A stretch of 50,990 nucleotides of DNA, taken from IMG/VR virus record IMGVR_UViG_3300017700_000695, positions 1-50,990 of that record; one strand, written 5' to 3'. Made by a program: the position numbers and the translations under genes. Of this stretch, positions 16,683-47,016 are shown piece by piece. The stretch's first letter is position 1. The number at the start of each line of letters is the position of its first letter. This DNA comes from a virus (taxonomy: Duplodnaviria > Caudoviricetes). Under the pieces are notes generated by a model. That model was not told where the DNA came from and did no database searches. It worked only from the letters and a program-made list of their open reading frames with translations.

Positions 16683-17056
16683 TCCCCGCCTGCGAATGGG
16701 ACCGCTGCGCGCACTGGATTGAAGCCGCGCTCGAACATAGCGGCGGGTCGCACCTCATAGAGGATGTCCGCTACCTCTGCGAGACCGACCCGGACTACCG
16801 GTTCCTGCCCGGCGAGCGGGCCGCGGCCGTCGTCCAGGTCATCGAATACCCCCGCCTGAAGCGGCTCCACCTCTGGCTCAACGGCGGCGACATGGCCGAA
16901 TTGGTCGAGGTTCTCCTGCCTATCGCCGAAACCTGGGGAAAAGCCCAGGGCTGCACCCAAGTCACGACCGCCGGTCGCCCAGGTTGGGACCGCGTCATGG
17001 CGCGCTATGGCTTCGAGCCCGCCGCCCGCATCTGCATGAAGGAATTGACGTCATGA
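16679..17056 (+). CDS. GNAT-like phage assembly protein
   Basis: LHLWLNGG, W.KAQGC....GRPGW.R motifs; precedes the ejection genes. Confidence 0.7.
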   Translation: MIPACEWDRCAHWIEAALEHSGGSHLIEDVRYLCETDPDYRFLPGERAAAVVQVIEYPRLKRLHLWLNGGDMAELVEVLLPIAETWGKAQGCTQVTTAGRPGWDRVMARYGFEPAARICMKELTS

Positions 17057-17964
17057 GTTTCGGCATCAGCGGCAGCAAGTCGAAGCAGAAAAGCTCGACG
17101 GACTCCAACCTCACCTCGACCACGACCCCCAACGTTCCCGACTGGCTGCTGGACCCGGCCAAGGCGTCGGCGGCCAACATCACCAAGCTTGGCGCGACCG
17201 ACCCGTCCACTTTGGTCCTTGGCGAGGATCCGCTGCAGGCCCAGGCCCGCGTCCGCGCCGGCGGCCTGACCGGCTCGCCTTGGAACTTCGACGCCGCCGC
17301 CGATCTCACCCGAGGCATCGCGGGCCAGAGCGCGAAGAAAGTCGAGGCCGCCAGCCTGCTGGACAACCTCGACAGCTACACGTCGCCCTACCGCAAGGAC
17401 GTGGTCGACGCCACGGCGGCGGACTTCGACGCCAACGCCGGAAGGACCCGCGCTCAACAAGACCTAGCGATCGCCGGAGAGGGCGCTTTCGGGGGCTCTG
17501 GCGCGGCTCTGACCAAGTCGGCCACTGAGGGCGAGTTGGCGCGCGGCCGGGCGACGACCATGGCGACGCTGCTGGACCAGATGTTCAACACCGGCGCCGG
17601 GCTCTCCAACATGGACGCCGGCCGCCGTCAGGCCGCCAGTTCCGAGAACGCGTCGCTCGCCATGCAGCAGCGGGCGCAGACCCTGGACGCGGCCCGCCAA
17701 CTCGCCGACCTGTCCGCAGGCTTCGACGCCACCCAGCGGGCCAACATCGCCACCCAGGCCGCGGCCGGCGCGACCGCGCGGGATATCGCCACCGAGCAGG
17801 TCCAGGCTCCGTTCAACCTGCAGGACTGGATCAACCAAGCCCTGGCGGGCCTCAACGGCGAAATGTTCACCGGGAAGACCACAAACGAAGTCGGATCGTC
17901 GAAGTCGACGGGCTCTGGCAGCACGATTGGGGCGTCGGCGTCGGCATCCTACGGGGGCAAATAG
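17053..17964 (+). CDS. DNA ejection (pilot) protein, gp7-like
   Basis: GSKSKQ/TTTP..P.W N-terminus, YTSPY, GAFGGS; Ala/Gln-rich. Confidence 0.7.
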   Translation: MSFGISGSKSKQKSSTDSNLTSTTTPNVPDWLLDPAKASAANITKLGATDPSTLVLGEDPLQAQARVRAGGLTGSPWNFDAAADLTRGIAGQSAKKVEAASLLDNLDSYTSPYRKDVVDATAADFDANAGRTRAQQDLAIAGEGAFGGSGAALTKSATEGELARGRATTMATLLDQMFNTGAGLSNMDAGRRQAASSENASLAMQQRAQTLDAARQLADLSAGFDATQRANIATQAAAGATARDIATEQVQAPFNLQDWINQALAGLNGEMFTGKTTNEVGSSKSTGSGSTIGASASASYGGK

Positions 17965-17967
17965 ACC

Positions 17968-19968
17968 ATGGCTAAGGCGAGCCTCGGCAAACTCGACACC
18001 CGCCAGCCGGTGGCTGTGGACCTCGCGAAGGTTCACGACATCACTGCGCGCATGAACACGCCGGCGGCTCCGCCGCAGATGTCGGCCGACTTCATCGCGC
18101 CTATCAACGTCCCCCAGCCCAAGGCCTGGCGCCCGAACGCGCTGGCGGTGCTGGATGGGGTTCTCGGCGGCATGACCTTCACCGAGAGCCGTCGCGCCGA
18201 GGAAGATCGCCACCGCGCCGAACTGGCCATGCCGCAGATGGAGGCCCTGAAGACCCGCCTCCTGACCGAACTCGGCAAGGCCGGGCCTGATGAACTGAAG
18301 GCCTATCTGACCAACCCCGGCGAGTTCGGGAAGAACATCGCCACGCGCTTGGCGGCCTCCGACCTCGCCGCCGGCTCGTCGCGCGTCTACGGAAACCCCG
18401 ACCAGGGCGGCAGCGTCTACACGGCGCCCAAGACCGACACCGCTGCCGGCCAGGCCTTCTCCTATGGCCCGGATGGGGTGAAGGCGCTCGGCGCCGTTCC
18501 GTTCGTGCCTGACTACGTGAACGTGAGCGAGGGCGGGAAGGCGGTTCCGAAGATGCCGATCCTGCCGCCTGGGTTTGGCGGCCCCGCGGCGATGGCCGCC
18601 AGCCTACCGCAGGTTGGCGAGGTGCGGCGCGTGGCGTCCGCCCCCCTTCCGGCGGCTGTGGCGCAGCGGATCCGCTCGACCGCAACCGCGCTCGGCGCTC
18701 CGCCTGAGGCGCTGTCCTATCTGGAGCGCCTGGCGCAGATCGAGAGCGCCGGAGACCCTGCGGCTCGCAACGGCTCCTCGACGGGCGTGTTCCAGTTCCA
18801 ACCGGCCACCTTCGCGACCGTCGGCGGCGGCGACATCAACTCTGTCGAGGATCAGACCAAGGCCGCGCTGCGGCTCGCCGCCCAGGACCGCAAGAAGCTC
18901 GTCGAGCTCGGGATCGAGCCGACCGACGCCAACCTCTACATCATGCACCAGCAAGGCGCTGGCGGCGGCCCTGCGCTGCTGACGGCCCCGCCTGAGGTCA
19001 ACGCCGTCGCGGCCCTGGCTCCGGCCTATGGCGGCGACGCGAACAAGGCCCGCCGCGCCATCGTCGGCAATGGCGGAACCGCCGACATGACGGCCGGCGA
19101 GTTCACCGACATGTGGCGCCGGAAGTGGGGCGGCTCCGCGGCCCCAGCTCCACGCGTCAGCCCGACGGGCGGCGACCCCGCCGGCACGGTCTACGGCAAA
19201 GAGAAGGCCCAGCCCCGCCCGATGACGTCTGAAGAGCGCGTCGCCTGGAAAATCCCCGAGGGCGTCCCCGCGCTCATGAAGGCGGATGGCACGCCCGACG
19301 TCATCTCGTTGCCGGGCGGCAACTCCAGCCCTCGGAAGACCGAGGCGGACTTCCGAAAGTCGTTCGACGCCCTCGGTGAGGTCAAAGAATATCGTGCGAT
19401 CAGCAACGCCTACCGCACGATCCAGCGCCTCTCAAACGAGGACACCCCGGCCGGCGACATCTCCATGCTGTTCTCGTACATGAAGATGTTGGACCCCACG
19501 AGCGTCGTTCGAGAGGGAGAGTTTGCGACCGCCCAAAACGCCACGGGCATTCCTGGCCAGGTCCAAAACGCCTACAACCGCGCCATCAACGGCACTCGTC
19601 TTGCGCCGAAGCAGCGGGAGGATTTCCGCAACCAGGCCCGGAACATCTACCTGACCCGGGCCGACCGTTTCGACGAGATCGCGAACGAATATCGAGGGTA
19701 CGCGACGGCCTATGACGTCGATCCGGACAACGTCGTGAAGTTGCGCGACGACGCCGAGGCCCAAGCGCCAGGCCCATCGCGTCCGGCGGGCTGGAGCAAG
19801 GCCCTTCCGGCGCCGATGCTTGAGACCGCGAAGCAATTCAAGGGGGCCAAATCGGCGGGCGGCTCTCTCGACAATCCCTTCCTTCCGACCACGGAGGCGC
19901 AGTATGCAAAGCTTCCGCCTGGTGCTCACTACGTCTTCACCGACGGCTCGATCCGGGTGAAACGCTGA
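17968..19968 (+). CDS. Ejection protein with a lytic transglycosylase-like domain
   Basis: LAQIESAGDP..RN.SSTGVFQF, LYIMHQQGAGG; C-terminal KMLDP.SVVREGEF domain. Confidence 0.75.
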   Translation: MAKASLGKLDTRQPVAVDLAKVHDITARMNTPAAPPQMSADFIAPINVPQPKAWRPNALAVLDGVLGGMTFTESRRAEEDRHRAELAMPQMEALKTRLLTELGKAGPDELKAYLTNPGEFGKNIATRLAASDLAAGSSRVYGNPDQGGSVYTAPKTDTAAGQAFSYGPDGVKALGAVPFVPDYVNVSEGGKAVPKMPILPPGFGGPAAMAASLPQVGEVRRVASAPLPAAVAQRIRSTATALGAPPEALSYLERLAQIESAGDPAARNGSSTGVFQFQPATFATVGGGDINSVEDQTKAALRLAAQDRKKLVELGIEPTDANLYIMHQQGAGGGPALLTAPPEVNAVAALAPAYGGDANKARRAIVGNGGTADMTAGEFTDMWRRKWGGSAAPAPRVSPTGGDPAGTVYGKEKAQPRPMTSEERVAWKIPEGVPALMKADGTPDVISLPGGNSSPRKTEADFRKSFDALGEVKEYRAISNAYRTIQRLSNEDTPAGDISMLFSYMKMLDPTSVVREGEFATAQNATGIPGQVQNAYNRAINGTRLAPKQREDFRNQARNIYLTRADRFDEIANEYRGYATAYDVDPDNVVKLRDDAEAQAPGPSRPAGWSKALPAPMLETAKQFKGAKSAGGSLDNPFLPTTEAQYAKLPPGAHYVFTDGSIRVKR

Positions 19969-21677
19969 TGGGCTGGGGCACGGATCCCGTCGCGAAAGGC
20001 GGCGGCTGGGGCAAGGACCAGGTTGTCGCACCGAAGGCTGTGAAGGTGTTTCAGCCGGTCACCGACTATATGGATGGCGCGAAGGGCGCATGGAACGGGA
20101 TCCTTGATGCCGTAAAGGATAACTACCGCGACGTCACATCAAGAGCCTCCCAGCCTCTGCCGAGTTTGGCAGAGGCTGTCGGACGTGAGGTGAATGACAT
20201 TTCGTTCTTGCCGAAGCTGGCGGGTCAGATCGTCGATCTCGGTTCTAAGATCACTGTCGGCGGCGCCCTCGACGCGCTCGTCGCCGCGCCGACCGGCCGC
20301 GCGCTGTCTAAGCTGCCGGTGAAACCGGGCGTCGCGCCGCAACTGCAGTTCGACGGCATGAGGCCCAGCCTCAGTCCCGCCCGGGCGATGACCGAAGCCG
20401 AGTCCGCCGAGGCGATCCGCGGCGCCATCAACACTTCGGTCCAGGCGGCCAAGCCCTCCGGCGGCCTCGCCCTTGAGGCCCGCGTGATGGGCCCGCAACT
20501 CCCCAACGTCCCCGTCCTCAAGCCCAAACCCGACCTCGCGACCCTCTCTCCGGCCAAGCGGAACGTCCGTATTCTGGATGAGGCCGGGGTCTTCATGACG
20601 CCGGGCCAGAAGGCGGGCGGCCAACTGAAGAACCTTGAGGACATCGCCCGCCGGGCGCCGATCACTGGCGTGGCGATCAAGGGCGCGGCTGACCGCAGTG
20701 TCGAGAGCCTGAACCGGGCCGTCGCCAACCAGGCCTTGGGCCCCATCGGCGAAGCCTTGCCGAAGACCATCCCGACCGGCCATGACTCCGTTCGCCACGT
20801 CGCCAAGACGCTCGGCAAGGCCTATGACGACGCCGCGGCGATGGTGCCTGAAGCGGCGATCGATGCGCCATTCGACGAGGCTGTCGCGGCGATCGGGACC
20901 CGGCTGGCCGAGCAGCCGTCCGGCGTGCGGACGCAGTTCGACACCATCATCGACAACCGCCTCGCCAACCTGCGCGGAAAGACCGTGACCGGGGCGCAGA
21001 TCCGCGACGCCCAGTCGCAGATCGGCAAGCTGGCGGCCGACTTCAGCGCCAGCGACGACGGCGCCCAGCGCGCCCTCGGCGGGGCCCTGGACGATCTCTC
21101 CGACGAGCTCGCCAACATCATCGGCCGACGCAGCCCTGAAGCCTCGGCGCTGATCGACAAGGCGAACACCGGGTGGTCGATCTATACCCGCCTCCGAAAC
21201 GCCGCCTCCAAGGCGAAGGGCGGCATCGCGACGCCGGGTCAGTTTTCAACCGCCGTCCGGACCCTTGATCGTTCGGTTGGGAAGGGCAATGTCGCGAGGG
21301 GCCAGGCTGTTCTGCAGGACCTCTCGAACGCCGCCTGGGAGGTGCTGCCCGACTCCTACGGTAACCCCGGCACGGCCGACGCCCTGAGCGCCATGGGCCT
21401 AGCCGCTGCGGCGATGAACCCGACGACGGCCGGCGCGGCGGTCCCAGCTGCGGTCGGTCTCACCGGCGCCGCTGTTCCCTACGCGATGATGGGGCGCAAG
21501 ATCGCGGAGCGTCTGCCGCAGAAGGCCGCTCCGACGCCCGAGCAACTGGTGGAGGCTATTTCGGCTTGGAAGGGCCCCGGCGGCCGGATAGCTGGGCCTT
21601 CAGGATCGCAGCTTCCTCAGAAGACCGCAGGGGCCCTGCCAAAGCTTTCGCGAAGGCAGCCACGGGCCAAGCCATAG
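19968..21677 (+). CDS. Large ejection/internal virion protein
   Basis: Coupled to the previous gene; TPGQ..G motif; Ala-rich and helical. Confidence 0.7.
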   Translation: MGWGTDPVAKGGGWGKDQVVAPKAVKVFQPVTDYMDGAKGAWNGILDAVKDNYRDVTSRASQPLPSLAEAVGREVNDISFLPKLAGQIVDLGSKITVGGALDALVAAPTGRALSKLPVKPGVAPQLQFDGMRPSLSPARAMTEAESAEAIRGAINTSVQAAKPSGGLALEARVMGPQLPNVPVLKPKPDLATLSPAKRNVRILDEAGVFMTPGQKAGGQLKNLEDIARRAPITGVAIKGAADRSVESLNRAVANQALGPIGEALPKTIPTGHDSVRHVAKTLGKAYDDAAAMVPEAAIDAPFDEAVAAIGTRLAEQPSGVRTQFDTIIDNRLANLRGKTVTGAQIRDAQSQIGKLAADFSASDDGAQRALGGALDDLSDELANIIGRRSPEASALIDKANTGWSIYTRLRNAASKAKGGIATPGQFSTAVRTLDRSVGKGNVARGQAVLQDLSNAAWEVLPDSYGNPGTADALSAMGLAAAAMNPTTAGAAVPAAVGLTGAAVPYAMMGRKIAERLPQKAAPTPEQLVEAISAWKGPGGRIAGPSGSQLPQKTAGALPKLSRRQPRAKP

Positions 21678-21879: not shown

Positions 21880-22092
21880 TCACGCCTGAGGAGAGCGGAG
21901 GCCCATCGTTACCAAGTAGTCCGCCACCAGTCGGCGCAGGGCCTCAGGGCGCGAAGGGCGTGGATCGGGCTGCTCTGCGATCCAGCGGTCTAGGTCAGCC
22001 AGGAGATCTGGCGGAACACGCACGTTTACGGGCACCGCCTCGACCTTCGGGCGGCCTCTGGTTTTTCTGGCGCTAGGTATTGCGTTTGTCAT
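21880..22092 (-). CDS. Ribbon-helix-helix (Arc/Mnt/CopG-like) regulator
   Basis: RGRP, PVNVRVPPDLLADLDRWI, SRPEALRRLV. Confidence 0.85.
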   Translation of the reverse strand: MTNAIPSARKTRGRPKVEAVPVNVRVPPDLLADLDRWIAEQPDPRPSRPEALRRLVADYLVTMGLRSPQA

Positions 22093-22177: not shown

Positions 22178-22525
22178 ATGGCCCAGGCTGCCCCAGCCTC
22201 TACCACCCGTCGCGCGCTACTGTCAGTAGGCGCCGCGCTCCCCGCCATCATCGCGACCCCTGTCATCGCCAAGGAGATCGGAAAAGGAGAGGCGTGGCGC
22301 TTGAGAAAGCGCGCATTCATCGAGCAGGTCGCAGGCTTCTCGCCGAATGGCCGGTTCGTCGCGACCCGCGCGATGGCGATGGACCTTGATCCGGACGACT
22401 GCATCATGATCGAGCTGGCCGGGCCGCGTCACCTTCGGCCGCAACTGCACTTCCAGCGCGACGGGGACACGTCCGTAACTGTTGTCGGGCCGCGAATGGC
22501 GATCCTTCATGGGCCGGTGCTCTGA
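22178..22525 (+). CDS. Hypothetical protein, first gene of the RAMP cassette
   Basis: GAGGAG RBS; TRRALL plus hydrophobic N-terminus; stop overlaps the next ATG. Confidence 0.6.
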   Translation: MAQAAPASTTRRALLSVGAALPAIIATPVIAKEIGKGEAWRLRKRAFIEQVAGFSPNGRFVATRAMAMDLDPDDCIMIELAGPRHLRPQLHFQRDGDTSVTVVGPRMAILHGPVL

Positions 22526-23160
22526 TGGCCGCCTCCACCAGCATCGAACTGCCGCCGCTGAATATCCAAACCATCGACATTCCGGTGATTGGAGACAGCC
22601 CGCTCATCTCTCACGCTTGGTCCGCCAAGGCGAAGAAGATGATGCTGGACAAGCACATGAAGAAGGCAGGCGCCGGACGGGTGGCAAAGGACCCGTTCCA
22701 AGACTTTGCGGAGACGTTGTACTGGCTCGATGGGGTGCCCGAGAAGCCCACGGAAGAGGACATCGAGGGCGGTCGTTTCGGCTTCCCAGCTATCGCCTTC
22801 AAAGCCGCTGCTGTCACGGCGGTCACCAGCATGGGCGGCATGACGAAGGTCATGGCTCGGCAGTGTTTCCACATCGTTGGCGAGTTCGTGGAGCTTCAAG
22901 GGCCTCCGCCCTCGATGCGCTTCGACATCACCAAGGTCGGCATGACGACCGACACGAGATTCCGCGCGGAGTTCGAAACCTGGGGAGCCATCCTCCGCGT
23001 CCAGCACAACGCCAACGTCCTCTCGGCAGAACAGGTCATCAGCCTGTTCGAGGCAGGCGGGTTCGGCGTCGGCATCGGTGACTGGAGGCCCGAACGCGAT
23101 GGCGTTCACGGTCGCTTCCACGTGGCTAAAACCGGGGAGACTATCCCGTGCCGGGCGTGA
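22525..23160 (+). CDS. Small RAMP/Cas7-like protein (Vipr-like effector candidate)
   Basis: First strand IDIPVIGDSPLISH; FGFPAIAFKAA resembles the RAMP IPGSSxKG motif; C-terminal Gly-rich loop GFGVGIGDWRP..DG.HGRF.V; lies near a GGY-NN array. Confidence 0.75.
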   Translation: MAASTSIELPPLNIQTIDIPVIGDSPLISHAWSAKAKKMMLDKHMKKAGAGRVAKDPFQDFAETLYWLDGVPEKPTEEDIEGGRFGFPAIAFKAAAVTAVTSMGGMTKVMARQCFHIVGEFVELQGPPPSMRFDITKVGMTTDTRFRAEFETWGAILRVQHNANVLSAEQVISLFEAGGFGVGIGDWRPERDGVHGRFHVAKTGETIPCRA

Positions 23161-23624
23161 ACTACGCATGGCGGCCCGGCTCACGCATCAGCATCGACGC
23201 CGGCAAGGCGGGGAGGGAGTTGGAGCGCATCCGGCTCGGCAACAGCGGCGCCCTAACTCAGGAGGCGGTCCTAGCGCAGGCAAGGTCCGCCAACTCCGCC
23301 CTGCACCCGCACTTTGAGTGGGATGATACTGTCGCGGCGGAGAAACATCGCCTCGGACAAGCCGGTGAGTTGATACGCTCGATCACTATAGACGTGTCTC
23401 GGTCAAATCTAGAAACCAAGCCCATCCGGGCGTTCGTCAACGTCCATGTCGGCGAAAGGCAGCACTACACTTCAACGCTGCATGCTATGTCGGACAGGGA
23501 ACTTCGCGCACAGGTGCTCGCCAAAGCCTGGGCCGATTTGGAGGCGTGGCGGGATCGTCACGCAGAGCTCACCGAGTTTGCGAAGATCTTCTCCGCGATC
23601 GATGAGGCTCGGAGCGCCAAATAG
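23148..23624 (+). CDS. Accessory protein between the RAMP gene and the array
   Basis: Overlapping start; ELERI, G.LT..AVL..AR...S.LHPHFEWDD..AAE..RL.QA..LIRSI. Confidence 0.7.
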   Translation: MPGVNYAWRPGSRISIDAGKAGRELERIRLGNSGALTQEAVLAQARSANSALHPHFEWDDTVAAEKHRLGQAGELIRSITIDVSRSNLETKPIRAFVNVHVGERQHYTSTLHAMSDRELRAQVLAKAWADLEAWRDRHAELTEFAKIFSAIDEARSAK

Positions 23625-23636
23625 GCTCCAAAACAG

Positions 23637-23808
23637 GGCAGGCGTGGCTGCGCAAGGCAGGGCTTGGCACGGTACGGCTGGGCGCGGCAGGCGTGGTAAG
23701 GCGAGGTTTGGTCGGGCGAGGTATGGCTCGGCAAGGCTCGGCTAGGCAGGCAAGGCGAGGCTTGTCGACGCTAGGCGGGGCGAGCCAAGGCTAGTCACCG
23801 CAAGGCCA
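23637..23808 (+). repeat. GGY-NN pentamer array in three GGCA-delimited units (putative guide RNA array)
   Basis: 32 pentamers parsed by hand, 26 starting GGC/GGT; 4-nt GGCA register shifts at 23637, 23686 and 23745. Confidence 0.9.
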
Positions 23809-23814
23809 ATATCG

Positions 23815-23844
23815 GGGCGGTTGGAGCGATCCAGCCGCCCTTCT
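23815..23844 (+). terminator. Hairpin closing the array
   Basis: GGGCGGTTGGA-GCGA-TCCAGCCGCCC (11-bp stem with one G-U, GNRA loop), then TTCT. Confidence 0.7.
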
Positions 23845-25355: not shown

Positions 25356-25565
25356 ATGCGAGCAAAGTTCCTGCCAGAAGAGCTGAAAACCTTGAAGCCT
25401 CACATGGCCCCCTTGGTCGGATATGAGGCCGATTGGGAATGGGCTGGCGAGATGGAGGAGGGCCCTTATACGGGCCAGGCTATCTATTACCTGAGCCGCA
25501 GTGACGCGCGCTATCGGGAGACCAGGGCGTGCTGGGTTCCTGCGGAAGATTTGGTCGCCGGCTAG
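25356..25565 (+). CDS. Hypothetical protein
   Basis: 69-aa ORF; G.Y.GQ and WVPAEDL motifs. Confidence 0.5.
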   Translation: MRAKFLPEELKTLKPHMAPLVGYEADWEWAGEMEEGPYTGQAIYYLSRSDARYRETRACWVPAEDLVAG

Positions 25566-26227
25566 GTCGGTTGGCCGGTGATGGCGGCCTCAATTGAAGC
25601 CTCCACCTCCCAAGCAATTTGCCGAACGGTGGCATAGTGAGCGTCCGTCATGGCCTTTCCGCTTATCCGGACTTGAGGGGCGGCGTCCGACCTCATCTGA
25701 ATGTATGCTGCGTCGGTGAGAACTGGGTTCAAGTGGGCGCCGCCATCCTTGTTCCTGAGGTTGAACACCAGGCTTTTCCTGCTGAGCGTCGGCCCGGCGC
25801 TGGAGGCATAGATTTTCTCGTCCCACCATTTGGAGAAAGCCAGGCTCCGTTTCCAAGCGGCTCCTGCGGGAACGGGCCCCGCCGGGACGTATGTGGTTCC
25901 GTTATCGTCCATTCGCACCAGCAACAGGGGCAGGGGCGGCTGCATCATTTGTTGGCCTGGGCGGCGGACCCGGTTTCCCAGGTGTTCTCCATAAAGTCCG
26001 CGCGACGAGCTGATGAAACGCATGGAAGGCTTTAGTCCCGCCTGGCCCAACAGCGATGATGTTGGTGACCGGCCGCTCTGGTCGTGAACCAAAATGTGAA
26101 TCGCCGTTGCCATGCGCTCTGCTTCCCAAAGCTCGCCTCGATCGAAGGCAGCGCATGAGGACCGGAGGCCGCGGCGCTGGATGGCCAGCTTTTCGGCAAT
26201 GTCATCTCGCGGACTCGGATGGGTCAA
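25562..26227 (-). CDS. Hypothetical accessory (moron) protein
   Basis: Lower GC, antisense; FDRG, WW.E.I, RNKDGGAH, VRQIAWE. Confidence 0.65.
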   Translation of the reverse strand: MTHPSPRDDIAEKLAIQRRGLRSSCAAFDRGELWEAERMATAIHILVHDQSGRSPTSSLLGQAGLKPSMRFISSSRGLYGEHLGNRVRRPGQQMMQPPLPLLLVRMDDNGTTYVPAGPVPAGAAWKRSLAFSKWWDEKIYASSAGPTLSRKSLVFNLRNKDGGAHLNPVLTDAAYIQMRSDAAPQVRISGKAMTDAHYATVRQIAWEVEASIEAAITGQPT

Positions 26228-26327: not shown

Positions 26328-26942
26328 GTGCTCTATCACGCCCACGAACTGGGCTGGCGAATGCCGGCGCGGATCAGGTTGTTTCACGCCCCCAAGACGC
26401 GGGTGACGGTCCCGGCCAGCCGTCGCTGGCTGGAGACCTTCATAGATCGCTGCGACGTCGACCGGCTGCCCCACCTGGCGGCCTGCGTGCTGACGATGAA
26501 CCTCTGCGGCGCGCGGGTCTCCGAGGCTATCAACCTGCTGGGCGAGCATGTGGATCTCCGCGAGAGGACCGCGCTGCTGGTGAAGACCAAGACCGGACTG
26601 AACAGCCTGCGCTACCTGCCCGACCACCTGGTCGAGCGCATCCGCGAGCTGGGCCTGACGCCCGGCGAGCGGGTGTTCCGCTACACCTCGCGGTTCTCGG
26701 TCAATGAGCGGATCTTCGCGGTCTGCGAGCGGGCGGGCCTGCCCTACAAGTCCAGCCACACGGTTGGCCGCCACGCCTTCGCGACCAACGCGCTCAACGC
26801 CGGCGTCGGGGTGCGGATCGCCATGGACGCCGGGGGTTGGAAGTCCTCGACGATCTTCCTTGAGACCTATGCACACACGCTCGAAGCCGGGCGCGTGGTG
26901 CGGGACCGCTTCAACGCCATCCACCACAGCGACCAGTTCTAG
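26328..26942 (+). pseudogene. N-terminally truncated tyrosine recombinase (catalytic domain only)
   Basis: GARVSEA, KTKTG, HTVGRH.FAT, GGWKS, TYAH; in-frame stop at 26253-26255, no start or RBS upstream, no core-binding domain. Confidence 0.7.
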
Positions 26943-45540: not shown

Positions 45541-45898
45541 GCGCCCGTCGGTCCTGCTGACCCGCATGGACATGTCCGACGAAGAAAACATCAAAGACGC
45601 CGAGCGCGAGCTTCAACGCGCCGGCGACGATGCCGCCAAGCTGTCCGTCTGGGCGGCGAAGTGGGGCGGTGTGCTGACCCTGCGCTGCGCCGAGACTGAG
45701 GGCTGGAAGCATGCGCCCGACGAAGTCGAGACGCTGACCGGAGAGCTCAACAGTTCCGAGAAGGCCCTTGAAGCCATTCAGGAAGCCGCTCGCGTCGCGA
45801 TCGACGGCATCGACAAGGCTCTTTCGGACAAAGGCATCGCCGATGCGGTGATCAACGCCGTCAACGAGGCCGTCGGCAAGCTGGAGAACGCGCTGTGA
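45524..45898 (+). CDS. Hypothetical protein
   Basis: Helical ORF overlapping both neighbours. Confidence 0.55.
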   Translation: MPTLLERPSVLLTRMDMSDEENIKDAERELQRAGDDAAKLSVWAAKWGGVLTLRCAETEGWKHAPDEVETLTGELNSSEKALEAIQEAARVAIDGIDKALSDKGIADAVINAVNEAVGKLENAL

Positions 45899-47016
45899 GG
45901 GCCGTCATCGAACGCGCCCCGCTCCTGGCCGCCCTCTCGCGCCTAATGGGCGTGGTGGAGCGCAAGCACAGCATCGCCGTCCTCTCCAACGTCTTGCTTT
46001 CGGTCTCGGCGGGCACGGTGCGCCTGCGGGGCACTGACTTGGAAATGGAGGCGATCGAGGTTGTCGCCGCCTCCGTTGACGAACCTGGCGACGTGCTGGT
46101 CTCGGCCGACAAGCTGCATGACATCGTGAGGAACGCCGACGCCGGCGCCCAGATCACCGTGTCGACCAAGCGGGATGATCCTCGCCTCCGGGTTCAATCG
46201 GGCCGCTCTAACTTCAACGTTCCCACGTCCGACCCGGCCGACTTCCCGGAGTTTAAGGCCGACGGGCTGTCGCCCGCGTGGTCGTTCCCGGCCAAGACGC
46301 TTGCGAACATGATTGCCCGGGTCGGCTTCGCTCGCGGCGAGCCGAACCCGCCCACGGCATTCGGCGGCATCTATCTCACCGTCGATGAGGGGGAGTTCCA
46401 CGCCGTCGCCTGCCACAAGGCCGGCATGGCGTTGCGCCGTGAGCCCGCGCCAGCAGGTGCGGCCATCGCCGCGATCGTGCTCCCCAAGTTCACCAACCAG
46501 CTCACCCGCTGGCTTGCCGACGCGGAGGGCGATGTCTGGATTTCATCGTCGGAAAGCCTGGTGCGCCTGGTCTGCGATGGCGCGACCCTGACGTCTAAGG
46601 TCTTCGGCGGCCAGTACTTCGACTATCGCCGCATCATGATCGAAAGCCACGAGGCGAGCGCCACGACGGATCAAGACGCCCTCGCGGCTGCGGCTCGCCG
46701 GGTGATGATCATGGGCGACATGTCCACCGGCTCGATCAGGATGAAGTTCGAAGATGGGGCCATCGCGCTTGCGTCTCGAAACGACCAATCGGGGGAGGGC
46801 GCCGACGAGATCGCTTGCGACTACGAGGGACCGCCCACCGACTTCCTGATGAATGCCGAGAAGGTGCAAGCGGCCCTAGCTTCCCTTTCCGGCGATCGAG
46901 TGGAGCTCAGCTTCGCGCCTGTGAAGGACGCCAAGGTCAACACGACTACTCAGGTGATCATCCGGGCGCCGTCCGATCCGGCCATGGTGATCAACCTCAT
47001 GCAGCCGCGTGCCTGA
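45895..47016 (+). CDS. dnaN: DNA polymerase III beta clamp homolog
   Basis: 373 aa; VLSNVLL, GTDLEME, GRSNF, DFP, YFDYRRI, C-terminal LMQPR. Confidence 0.85.
   Translation: MRAVIERAPLLAALSRLMGVVERKHSIAVLSNVLLSVSAGTVRLRGTDLEMEAIEVVAASVDEPGDVLVSADKLHDIVRNADAGAQITVSTKRDDPRLRVQSGRSNFNVPTSDPADFPEFKADGLSPAWSFPAKTLANMIARVGFARGEPNPPTAFGGIYLTVDEGEFHAVACHKAGMALRREPAPAGAAIAAIVLPKFTNQLTRWLADAEGDVWISSSESLVRLVCDGATLTSKVFGGQYFDYRRIMIESHEASATTDQDALAAAARRVMIMGDMSTGSIRMKFEDGAIALASRNDQSGEGADEIACDYEGPPTDFLMNAEKVQAALASLSGDRVELSFAPVKDAKVNTTTQVIIRAPSDPAMVINLMQPRA

Follow-up and report, generated by a model that had tools for sequence, protein, structure and literature searches.

The closest described systems to the locus reported here are the VIPR systems, in which each guide is a tract of 9-16 YNNGG repeats and the target skips one base per NN dinucleotide (10.64898/2026.04.26.720920). 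The block of transcription by the protein filament is established for the VIPR systems of SUSP1 and P. fulva (10.64898/2026.04.26.720927; 10.64898/2026.10.15.759431). In staggered VIPR arrays the neighbouring vrRNAs overlap by 1 nt (Fig. S18 legend; 10.64898/2026.04.26.720920), and such arrays, wobble-aligned skips and vipr-targeting guides are all in print (10.64898/2026.04.26.720920; 10.64898/2026.04.26.720927; 10.64898/2026.10.15.759431; 10.64898/2026.10.21.760802). After these 2026 papers a locus of this kind is not surprising. The published text and legends are silent on the boundary sequence, the targets, the leader and the processing of staggered arrays, and in the accessible text of the VIPR literature GGCA boundaries, staggered-array targets, a covarying leader hairpin and thumb aspartates were not found; figures or supplements may show them. 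We consider it highly probable that the locus is a VIPR system whose staggered array holds three guides, and that it most likely acts to silence rival phages. New here may be the decoded targets of such an array, a covarying 5' leader hairpin and thumb aspartates that possibly cut the array.

The window, by which we mean the whole stretch of 50,990 bases that was analysed, is a virus record, and it is probably a temperate P22-like podophage, because it encodes a P22-like portal and coat, a terminase, a CI-like repressor, Erf and YqaJ recombination genes and a tyrosine-integrase catalytic domain (Pfam, PHROGs). The nearest vipr relatives in named genomes (Brevundimonas, an uncultured Caulobacteraceae, Peiella and Hyphobacterium) suggest that its host is probably a member of Caulobacterales. 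The VIPR module is flanked by the DNA-ejection genes (16984-21677) on one side and by a GDSL-domain gene on the other. Elsewhere in the window, an ORF of 204 aa (26328-26942) with the tyrosine-integrase catalytic domain only adjoins the lysis genes, an IS1595-family transposase lies within the phage at 31559-32545, and genes for a helicase and a DNA methylase come after that of a phage DNA polymerase III beta clamp (45895-47016). On the minus strand, 25562-26227 holds a 221-aa moron-like gene (phrog_7805, function unassigned, no PADLOC match). An HNH gene lies ~21 kb from the vipr locus.

The genes of the module and its divergent neighbour are as follows.
21880..22092, minus strand: ribbon-helix-helix repressor gene (Pfam RHH_1 E 5e-4, just under the cut-off; PHROG transcriptional repressor E 7e-7).
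22178..22525, plus strand: 115-aa ORF with no assigned function, coupled to vipr, its stop overlapping the vipr ATG.
22525..23160, plus strand: vipr, the RAMP protomer, with RRM, thumb (residues 130-150) and G-loop (178-198).
23148..23624, plus strand: vap, the accessory gene, 158 aa, with a 13-nt overlap with vipr.

The ribbon-helix-helix gene is divergent from the VIPR operon, has a homologue in 24 of 31 close loci and probably regulates the operon; the position of the module behind it presumably resembles the immI slot of P22. The 115-aa ORF, probably the first gene of the operon, had no match in Pfam, PHROGs or PADLOC and no tblastn match in the homologue loci. It begins with a twin-arginine-like segment (RRALL), and the same slot in several close loci is occupied by an unrelated-looking ORF of the RRALF type.

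The 211-aa Vipr carries the SPL, FPAIAFK and GVGIGDWRP...GRF motifs from which a sequence-only reading had proposed a RAMP fold; the second ORF, the 12-nt gap and the GNRA (GCGA) hairpin that it had noted are likewise all present. Pfam and PADLOC gave no match to the protein, and PHROGs gave function-unknown families only. Its AlphaFold2 model (pLDDT 95.3) matched Csm, Cmr and Cas7-type RAMPs (Foldseek E 5e-5, TM about 0.4-0.5). The top fold match had a VIA Z of 10.6 and an rmsd of 3.7 over 149 residues, and the top matches were type III and type VII RNA-targeting RAMPs (Csm3/Cmr/Cas7). As modelled, Vipr is a Csm3/Cas7-like single-RRM RAMP with thumb and G-loop. The name VIPR, which had been offered tentatively, was also borne out: the 2026 descriptions fit, and the sole entry returned by a PDB sequence search (E up to 10) was SUSP1 Vipr (36pp_D), at E 0.0044 with the single sequence and at E 9e-6 with a 93-sequence profile. 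An hhalign comparison of a 141-sequence alignment with SUSP1 Vipr reached 98%, over the C-terminal 66 columns only.

In SUSP1 Vipr the residues that bind GGY are H17, R138, D177, W178 and R179 and those that clamp DNA are K33 and R39 (10.64898/2026.04.26.720927). All five GGY-binding residues are kept here as H30, R147, D186, W187 and R188, and the clamp residues as K46 and R52. The likeness to type II VIPR (SUSP1 and P. fulva) extends to the RAMP fold, the 1-nt skip with wobble alignment and the choice of targets, which lie in competing mobile elements and include vipr genes. Vap is not detectably homologous to SUSP1 Vap1, and Vipr is very distant from its SUSP1 counterpart, standing on a long branch in a quick tree. 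Its thumb bears D134 and D143, a pair that 135 of 140 aligned Vipr proteins have in full, where SUSP1 Vipr has E (or K) and V instead.

With the class 1 CRISPR RAMPs (Csm3, Cmr, Cas7) Vipr shares the RRM, thumb and G-loop fold, with Z up to the value given above, whereas the locus has a 5-nt period and a gapped guide, and no CRISPR repeats or multi-gene cas operon were found. There were no cas genes among the ORFs scanned with Pfam (12 and 52 ORFs) or PHROGs (30 ORFs); cas1, cas2, cas6 and cas10 were specifically not found in the scanned ORFs of the window, and none of the 20 largest of its 50 direct-repeat families was of the CRISPR type, in agreement with the earlier claim that cas1, cas2 and conventional CRISPR repeats are missing. 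The locus is the minimal vipr and vap pair, lacking a CRISPR array and cas genes, that characterises VIPR. VIPR systems are mostly viral or proviral, and this one is carried by a virus record with head, portal and repressor genes.

The elements that follow, the first of them overlapping the end of vap, are given below.
23605..23636, plus strand: 5' leader, with AGGCY, a 5-bp stem, a loop holding the vap stop codon, and RAAAC-NN.
23637..23640, plus strand: GGCA boundary unit 1, a 1-nt register slip.
23641..23685, plus strand: guide 1, 9 pentamers, antisense to the vipr codons AQVVNLFQT of the sister clade, wobble base skipped.
23686..23689, plus strand: GGCA boundary unit 2, a register slip.
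23690..23744, plus strand: guide 2, 11 pentamers, probably for the DNA-ejection gene of close relatives (VKEFRDVSNSY), sense.
23745..23748, plus strand: GGCA boundary unit 3, a register slip.
23749..23793, plus strand: guide 3, 9 pentamers, for the K[ED]FDYGDKY motif of N4-gp56-type major capsid genes, sense, wobble base skipped.
23794..23813, plus strand: 3' tail of three degenerate pentamers and a linker, not guide, giving no extension of the guide 3 match.
23814..23841, plus strand: GC-rich GNRA hairpin of 12 bp with a GCGA tetraloop (z -3.1 for a 61-nt stretch).

The array begins at 23637, 12 nt past the vap stop, and is the only one that the detector found in the window when both strands were scanned. 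Its in-phase GGY run is 12 of 12, whereas 100 copies of the window simulated with a second-order Markov model reached 8 at most. The array first read as constant GGY triplets is in this respect not a chance pattern, but only 26 of its 32 pentamers start with GGY (the rest with CGC, GTC or GCC) and they do not share one register. It splits into three registers at the 4-nt GGCA units (23637, 23686 and 23745), each of which shifts the register by 1 nt, leaving guides of 9, 11 and 9 pentamers, within the published range of repeats. The array is three separate guides, not one, and this is the published 'staggered' architecture, with which the locus shares a phage vipr, vap and GGY/NN array, abutting guides and the 1-nt shift (10.64898/2026.04.26.720920). 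The GGY/NN code proposed at the outset stood; the three staggered guides, the one-base skip and the targets had been missed.

We compared these features across 161 vipr loci, comprising the best 80 of 117 genome matches, the best 80 of at least 592 viral matches and the first 11 loci, with some near-duplicates. An array on the same strand was present in 142 of the 161 (on the opposite strand in one) and its NN differ between loci, in keeping with the check proposed for homologues, and 148 have a vap homologue. GGCA accounts for 630 of the 942 register-slip junctions in homologue arrays, and the units it bounds are mostly 8-12 pentamers long; the guide boundaries can be placed at GGCA. At L150:3589-4315 the slips are mostly TCNN 4-mers rather than GGCA and are preceded by GGCCG or similar, a boundary variant. 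Equivalent 3' hairpins occur in homologues, often followed by T runs. The GNRA hairpin of the window is probably a terminator or a 3' protector; its weak U tract kept it from being called in the terminator scan.

Decoded with a one-base skip, guide 1 matches 18 of 18 bases in the vipr genes of three loci (L094, L095 and L097) and 17 of 18 in three more, while the phage's own vipr reads EQVISLFEA and scores 13/18. Skips of 0, 2 and 3 were rejected with scores of 13, 13 and 14, and 1000 shuffles gave at most 16. In a quick tree the targeted vipr genes lie within the group that is sister to the clade of the window (28 rows, SH-aLRT 98). Exact matches in IMG/VR numbered seven, of which three were those vipr genes and four were copies of one unrelated site, so the 18-nt pattern has a chance background.

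The probable target of guide 2 is the gene for the DNA-ejection protein in close relatives. The guide matches 21 of 22 bases in the three closest relatives of the phage's own ejection protein (P0392-P0394), at the protein level only, where the choice of Ser and Arg codons is unseen; the best of 1000 shuffles over 120 listed proteins was 18. Within the window the best match is the own ejection gene at 19381, with 17/22 in DNA, a score reached by 9 of 1000 shuffles. One member of the ejection-protein cluster comes from Phenylobacterium, and two distant prophage ejection homologues score 12-13/22. A DNA target was found neither in IMG/VR by exact or relaxed search, nor in metagenomes by exact search, nor in 4 + 401 genomes at up to 3 mismatches or in the related-locus search; the relaxed metagenome search gave 13 matches, every one of low GC and without homology to the ejection gene. 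Avoidance of self at the site of guide 2 was rejected as not above background: relatives with 69% identity across this region have 7 of the 11 residues in common with the phage.

The first nine NN of guide 3 gave 43 exact 18/18 matches in IMG/VR. In 40 of them the site encodes K[ED]FDYGDKY within a single protein family, and these 40 comprise 14 distinct sequences differing at the skipped bases only. Three of the target proteins were checked and are PF13252 / phrog_334 major capsids, one of them named N4-gp56 family. A skip of two bases was rejected, as this control gave only 5 matches in IMG/VR; the skip 0 control was run on local loci. Reading the guide as 12 NN was likewise rejected: the last three pentamers fail to extend the match, and at none of the 43 sites do the NN of these tail pentamers agree with more than 2 of 6 bases. 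The best self match of the 12-NN reading was 16/24. Similar endings are seen in homologue arrays. The sampled genomes gave no support for a host in common with the capsid-bearing phages: no guide 3 site at up to 1 mismatch was present in the 401 genomes of the family of G001, a distant capsid of the targeted family occurs in 18 of 301 sampled genomes, and 15 of these capsid homologues score at most 13/18.

In silico, each block of the array decodes to a different gene, with 1-nt-skip, wobble-aligned and non-self targets at the DNA level for guides 1 and 3 and at the protein level for guide 2. The earlier proposal of one protomer per GGY-NN and a non-contiguous guide code was upheld. We propose that one transcript would carry vipr, vap and the three-guide array, probably under the divergent ribbon-helix-helix repressor, and that Vipr would polymerise on the guide RNA with one protomer per pentamer, burying GGY and displaying NN. 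GGCA would break the 5-nt register and so delimit three independent guides, each of which would pair with double-stranded DNA, two bases on and one skipped, and the conserved residues suggest that the resulting filament may block transcription. The guides would silence competing phages through a vipr gene, a DNA-ejection gene and a capsid gene, and the system is most likely a phage-versus-phage transcriptional silencer. Because the skips fall on wobble positions, synonymous changes would give no escape, and the phage would spare itself because its own copies either differ from the guides (13/18 and 17/22) or, as with the P22 coat, come from a different family. The strategy appears layered: to disarm a rival VIPR, to block the ejection gene of a relative and to hit a capsid motif common to many phages. 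The 1-nt-skip code, bench-tested only for type II VIPR, is hereby extended in silico to a distant staggered-array clade, and the compact locus with three named natural targets makes expression, processing and specificity of staggered arrays directly testable.

A possible, if rather unlikely, alternative to three separate RNAs is that the array is never cut, one long RNA serving as a multiplexed guide on which three stretches of filament form, each GGCA setting the register anew. There is no tail, ribozyme or hairpin between the internal guides and no Cas6-like gene was found. Each SUSP1 vrRNA ends in a structured tail of ~40 nt and is set apart, whereas here guides 1 and 2 lack such a tail and are directly followed by GGCA and the next guide. 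No hammerhead was found between the guides (no Rfam match, no CUGANGA core), and the array is not of the ribozyme-interspersed kind because there is no room between guides. Staggered arrays also stand outside the architectures confirmed by sRNA-seq (10.64898/2026.04.26.720920). An uncut array is nevertheless at odds with the Fig. S18 legend, which speaks of individual processed vrRNAs, though for a drawing (10.64898/2026.04.26.720920), and it would require a single uninterrupted filament to engage three targets that lie far apart.

If the array is cut into separate guides, the agent could be Vipr itself, an idea that we regard as doubtful: the leader hairpin with RAAAC would load the first protomers, and the thumb residues D134 and D143 would cut the array at the GGCA slips, making Vipr its own maturase. 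The leader, made of AGGCY, the stem-loop and RAAAC-NN ahead of the first GGCA, is present in 23 loci including the window, and four of its five stem pairs show compensatory changes among 21 aligned sequences. A model built from these 21 sequences and run on 60 sources found four more leaders at array starts (two clear, two weak) and three weak ones elsewhere. The leader has no Rfam family; a hammerhead was rejected for it (no CUGANGA core, no Rfam match), the weak Acido-1 hit at E 0.12 being far below the cut-off. Conservation of D134 and D143 fails to separate a catalytic from a structural role, because nearly all of those loci are staggered. If true, one 211-aa RAMP would do the jobs of both Cas6 and Cas7 as a self-processing multiplex guide system, would be a living model of the RAMP ancestor, and could furnish a very small multiplex gene-silencing tool.

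It is improbable that the complex goes beyond blocking transcription and destroys or otherwise acts on its target via Vap, as nuclease or recruiter. Vap, which has 287 close relatives, is tightly linked to vipr across the homologue loci and has invariant residues that include H, R, W and acidic ones, and VIPR types III-V carry enzyme Vaps (10.64898/2026.04.26.720920). Against the single SUSP1 Vap1 sequence no similarity was detected (hhalign probability 0.1%). However, it had no nuclease family match in Pfam, PHROGs or PADLOC; Pfam and PADLOC were silent altogether, PHROGs gave only function-unknown families, and the ESM Atlas gave only unnamed viral clusters. Its AlphaFold2 model (pLDDT 89) has a weakly winged-helix-like N-terminal domain and a long C-terminal helix, and fold searches ranked winged-helix DNA binders and coiled coils first, all of them weak matches, with MecI the best (Z 6.1, rmsd 2.8, 69 residues).

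An RNA target, as for the Csm3/Cmr RAMPs of similar fold, is very improbable. It would suit the RNA-targeting RAMPs at the top of the Vipr fold matches and the antisense orientation of guide 1, and SUSP1 Vipr can bind ssRNA in vitro (10.64898/2026.04.26.720927), but guides 2 and 3 are sense-strand and the DNA-clamp residues are kept. Since these two guides would be unable to pair with mRNA, DNA is the likely target of the silencer proposed here. The idea that the pentamers have nothing to do with vipr and are just low-complexity repeat or a piece of coding sequence deserves virtually no weight, for although some frames are open across the array and the window is GC-rich, the GGY run is above chance, the array accompanies vipr in the large majority of loci (142/161) and its targets are decodable.

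The decoding is shown for the window locus only, since 283 guides of homologue arrays showed no enrichment over controls against the vipr, vap, window or capsid loci in small local databases. A general anti-vipr network among the homologue guides was not seen, with one perfect 8-NN case in 273 internal units. In this case a guide of 8 pentamers from locus L048 matches 16/16 in the thumb-coding part of an other-clade vipr (L013:4391), near chance level. Locus L009 has an additional, solitary guide at 477-573, 2.4 kb upstream of vipr, which is equipped with a leader and a terminator-like hairpin of its own.

The family of Vipr is large, with 892 close proteins and 4,309 representatives (50% identity, E up to 0.001). 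It is found as a hypothetical protein in 34 cultured-phage records, mostly of mycobacteriophages and Gordonia phages, and cultured phages such as Pipp and the mycobacteriophages offer a ready bench system for this Vipr clade. In Gordonia phage Pipp (L250:1998-2900) the Vipr clade is present and the GGY array has been annotated as hypothetical gene 43.
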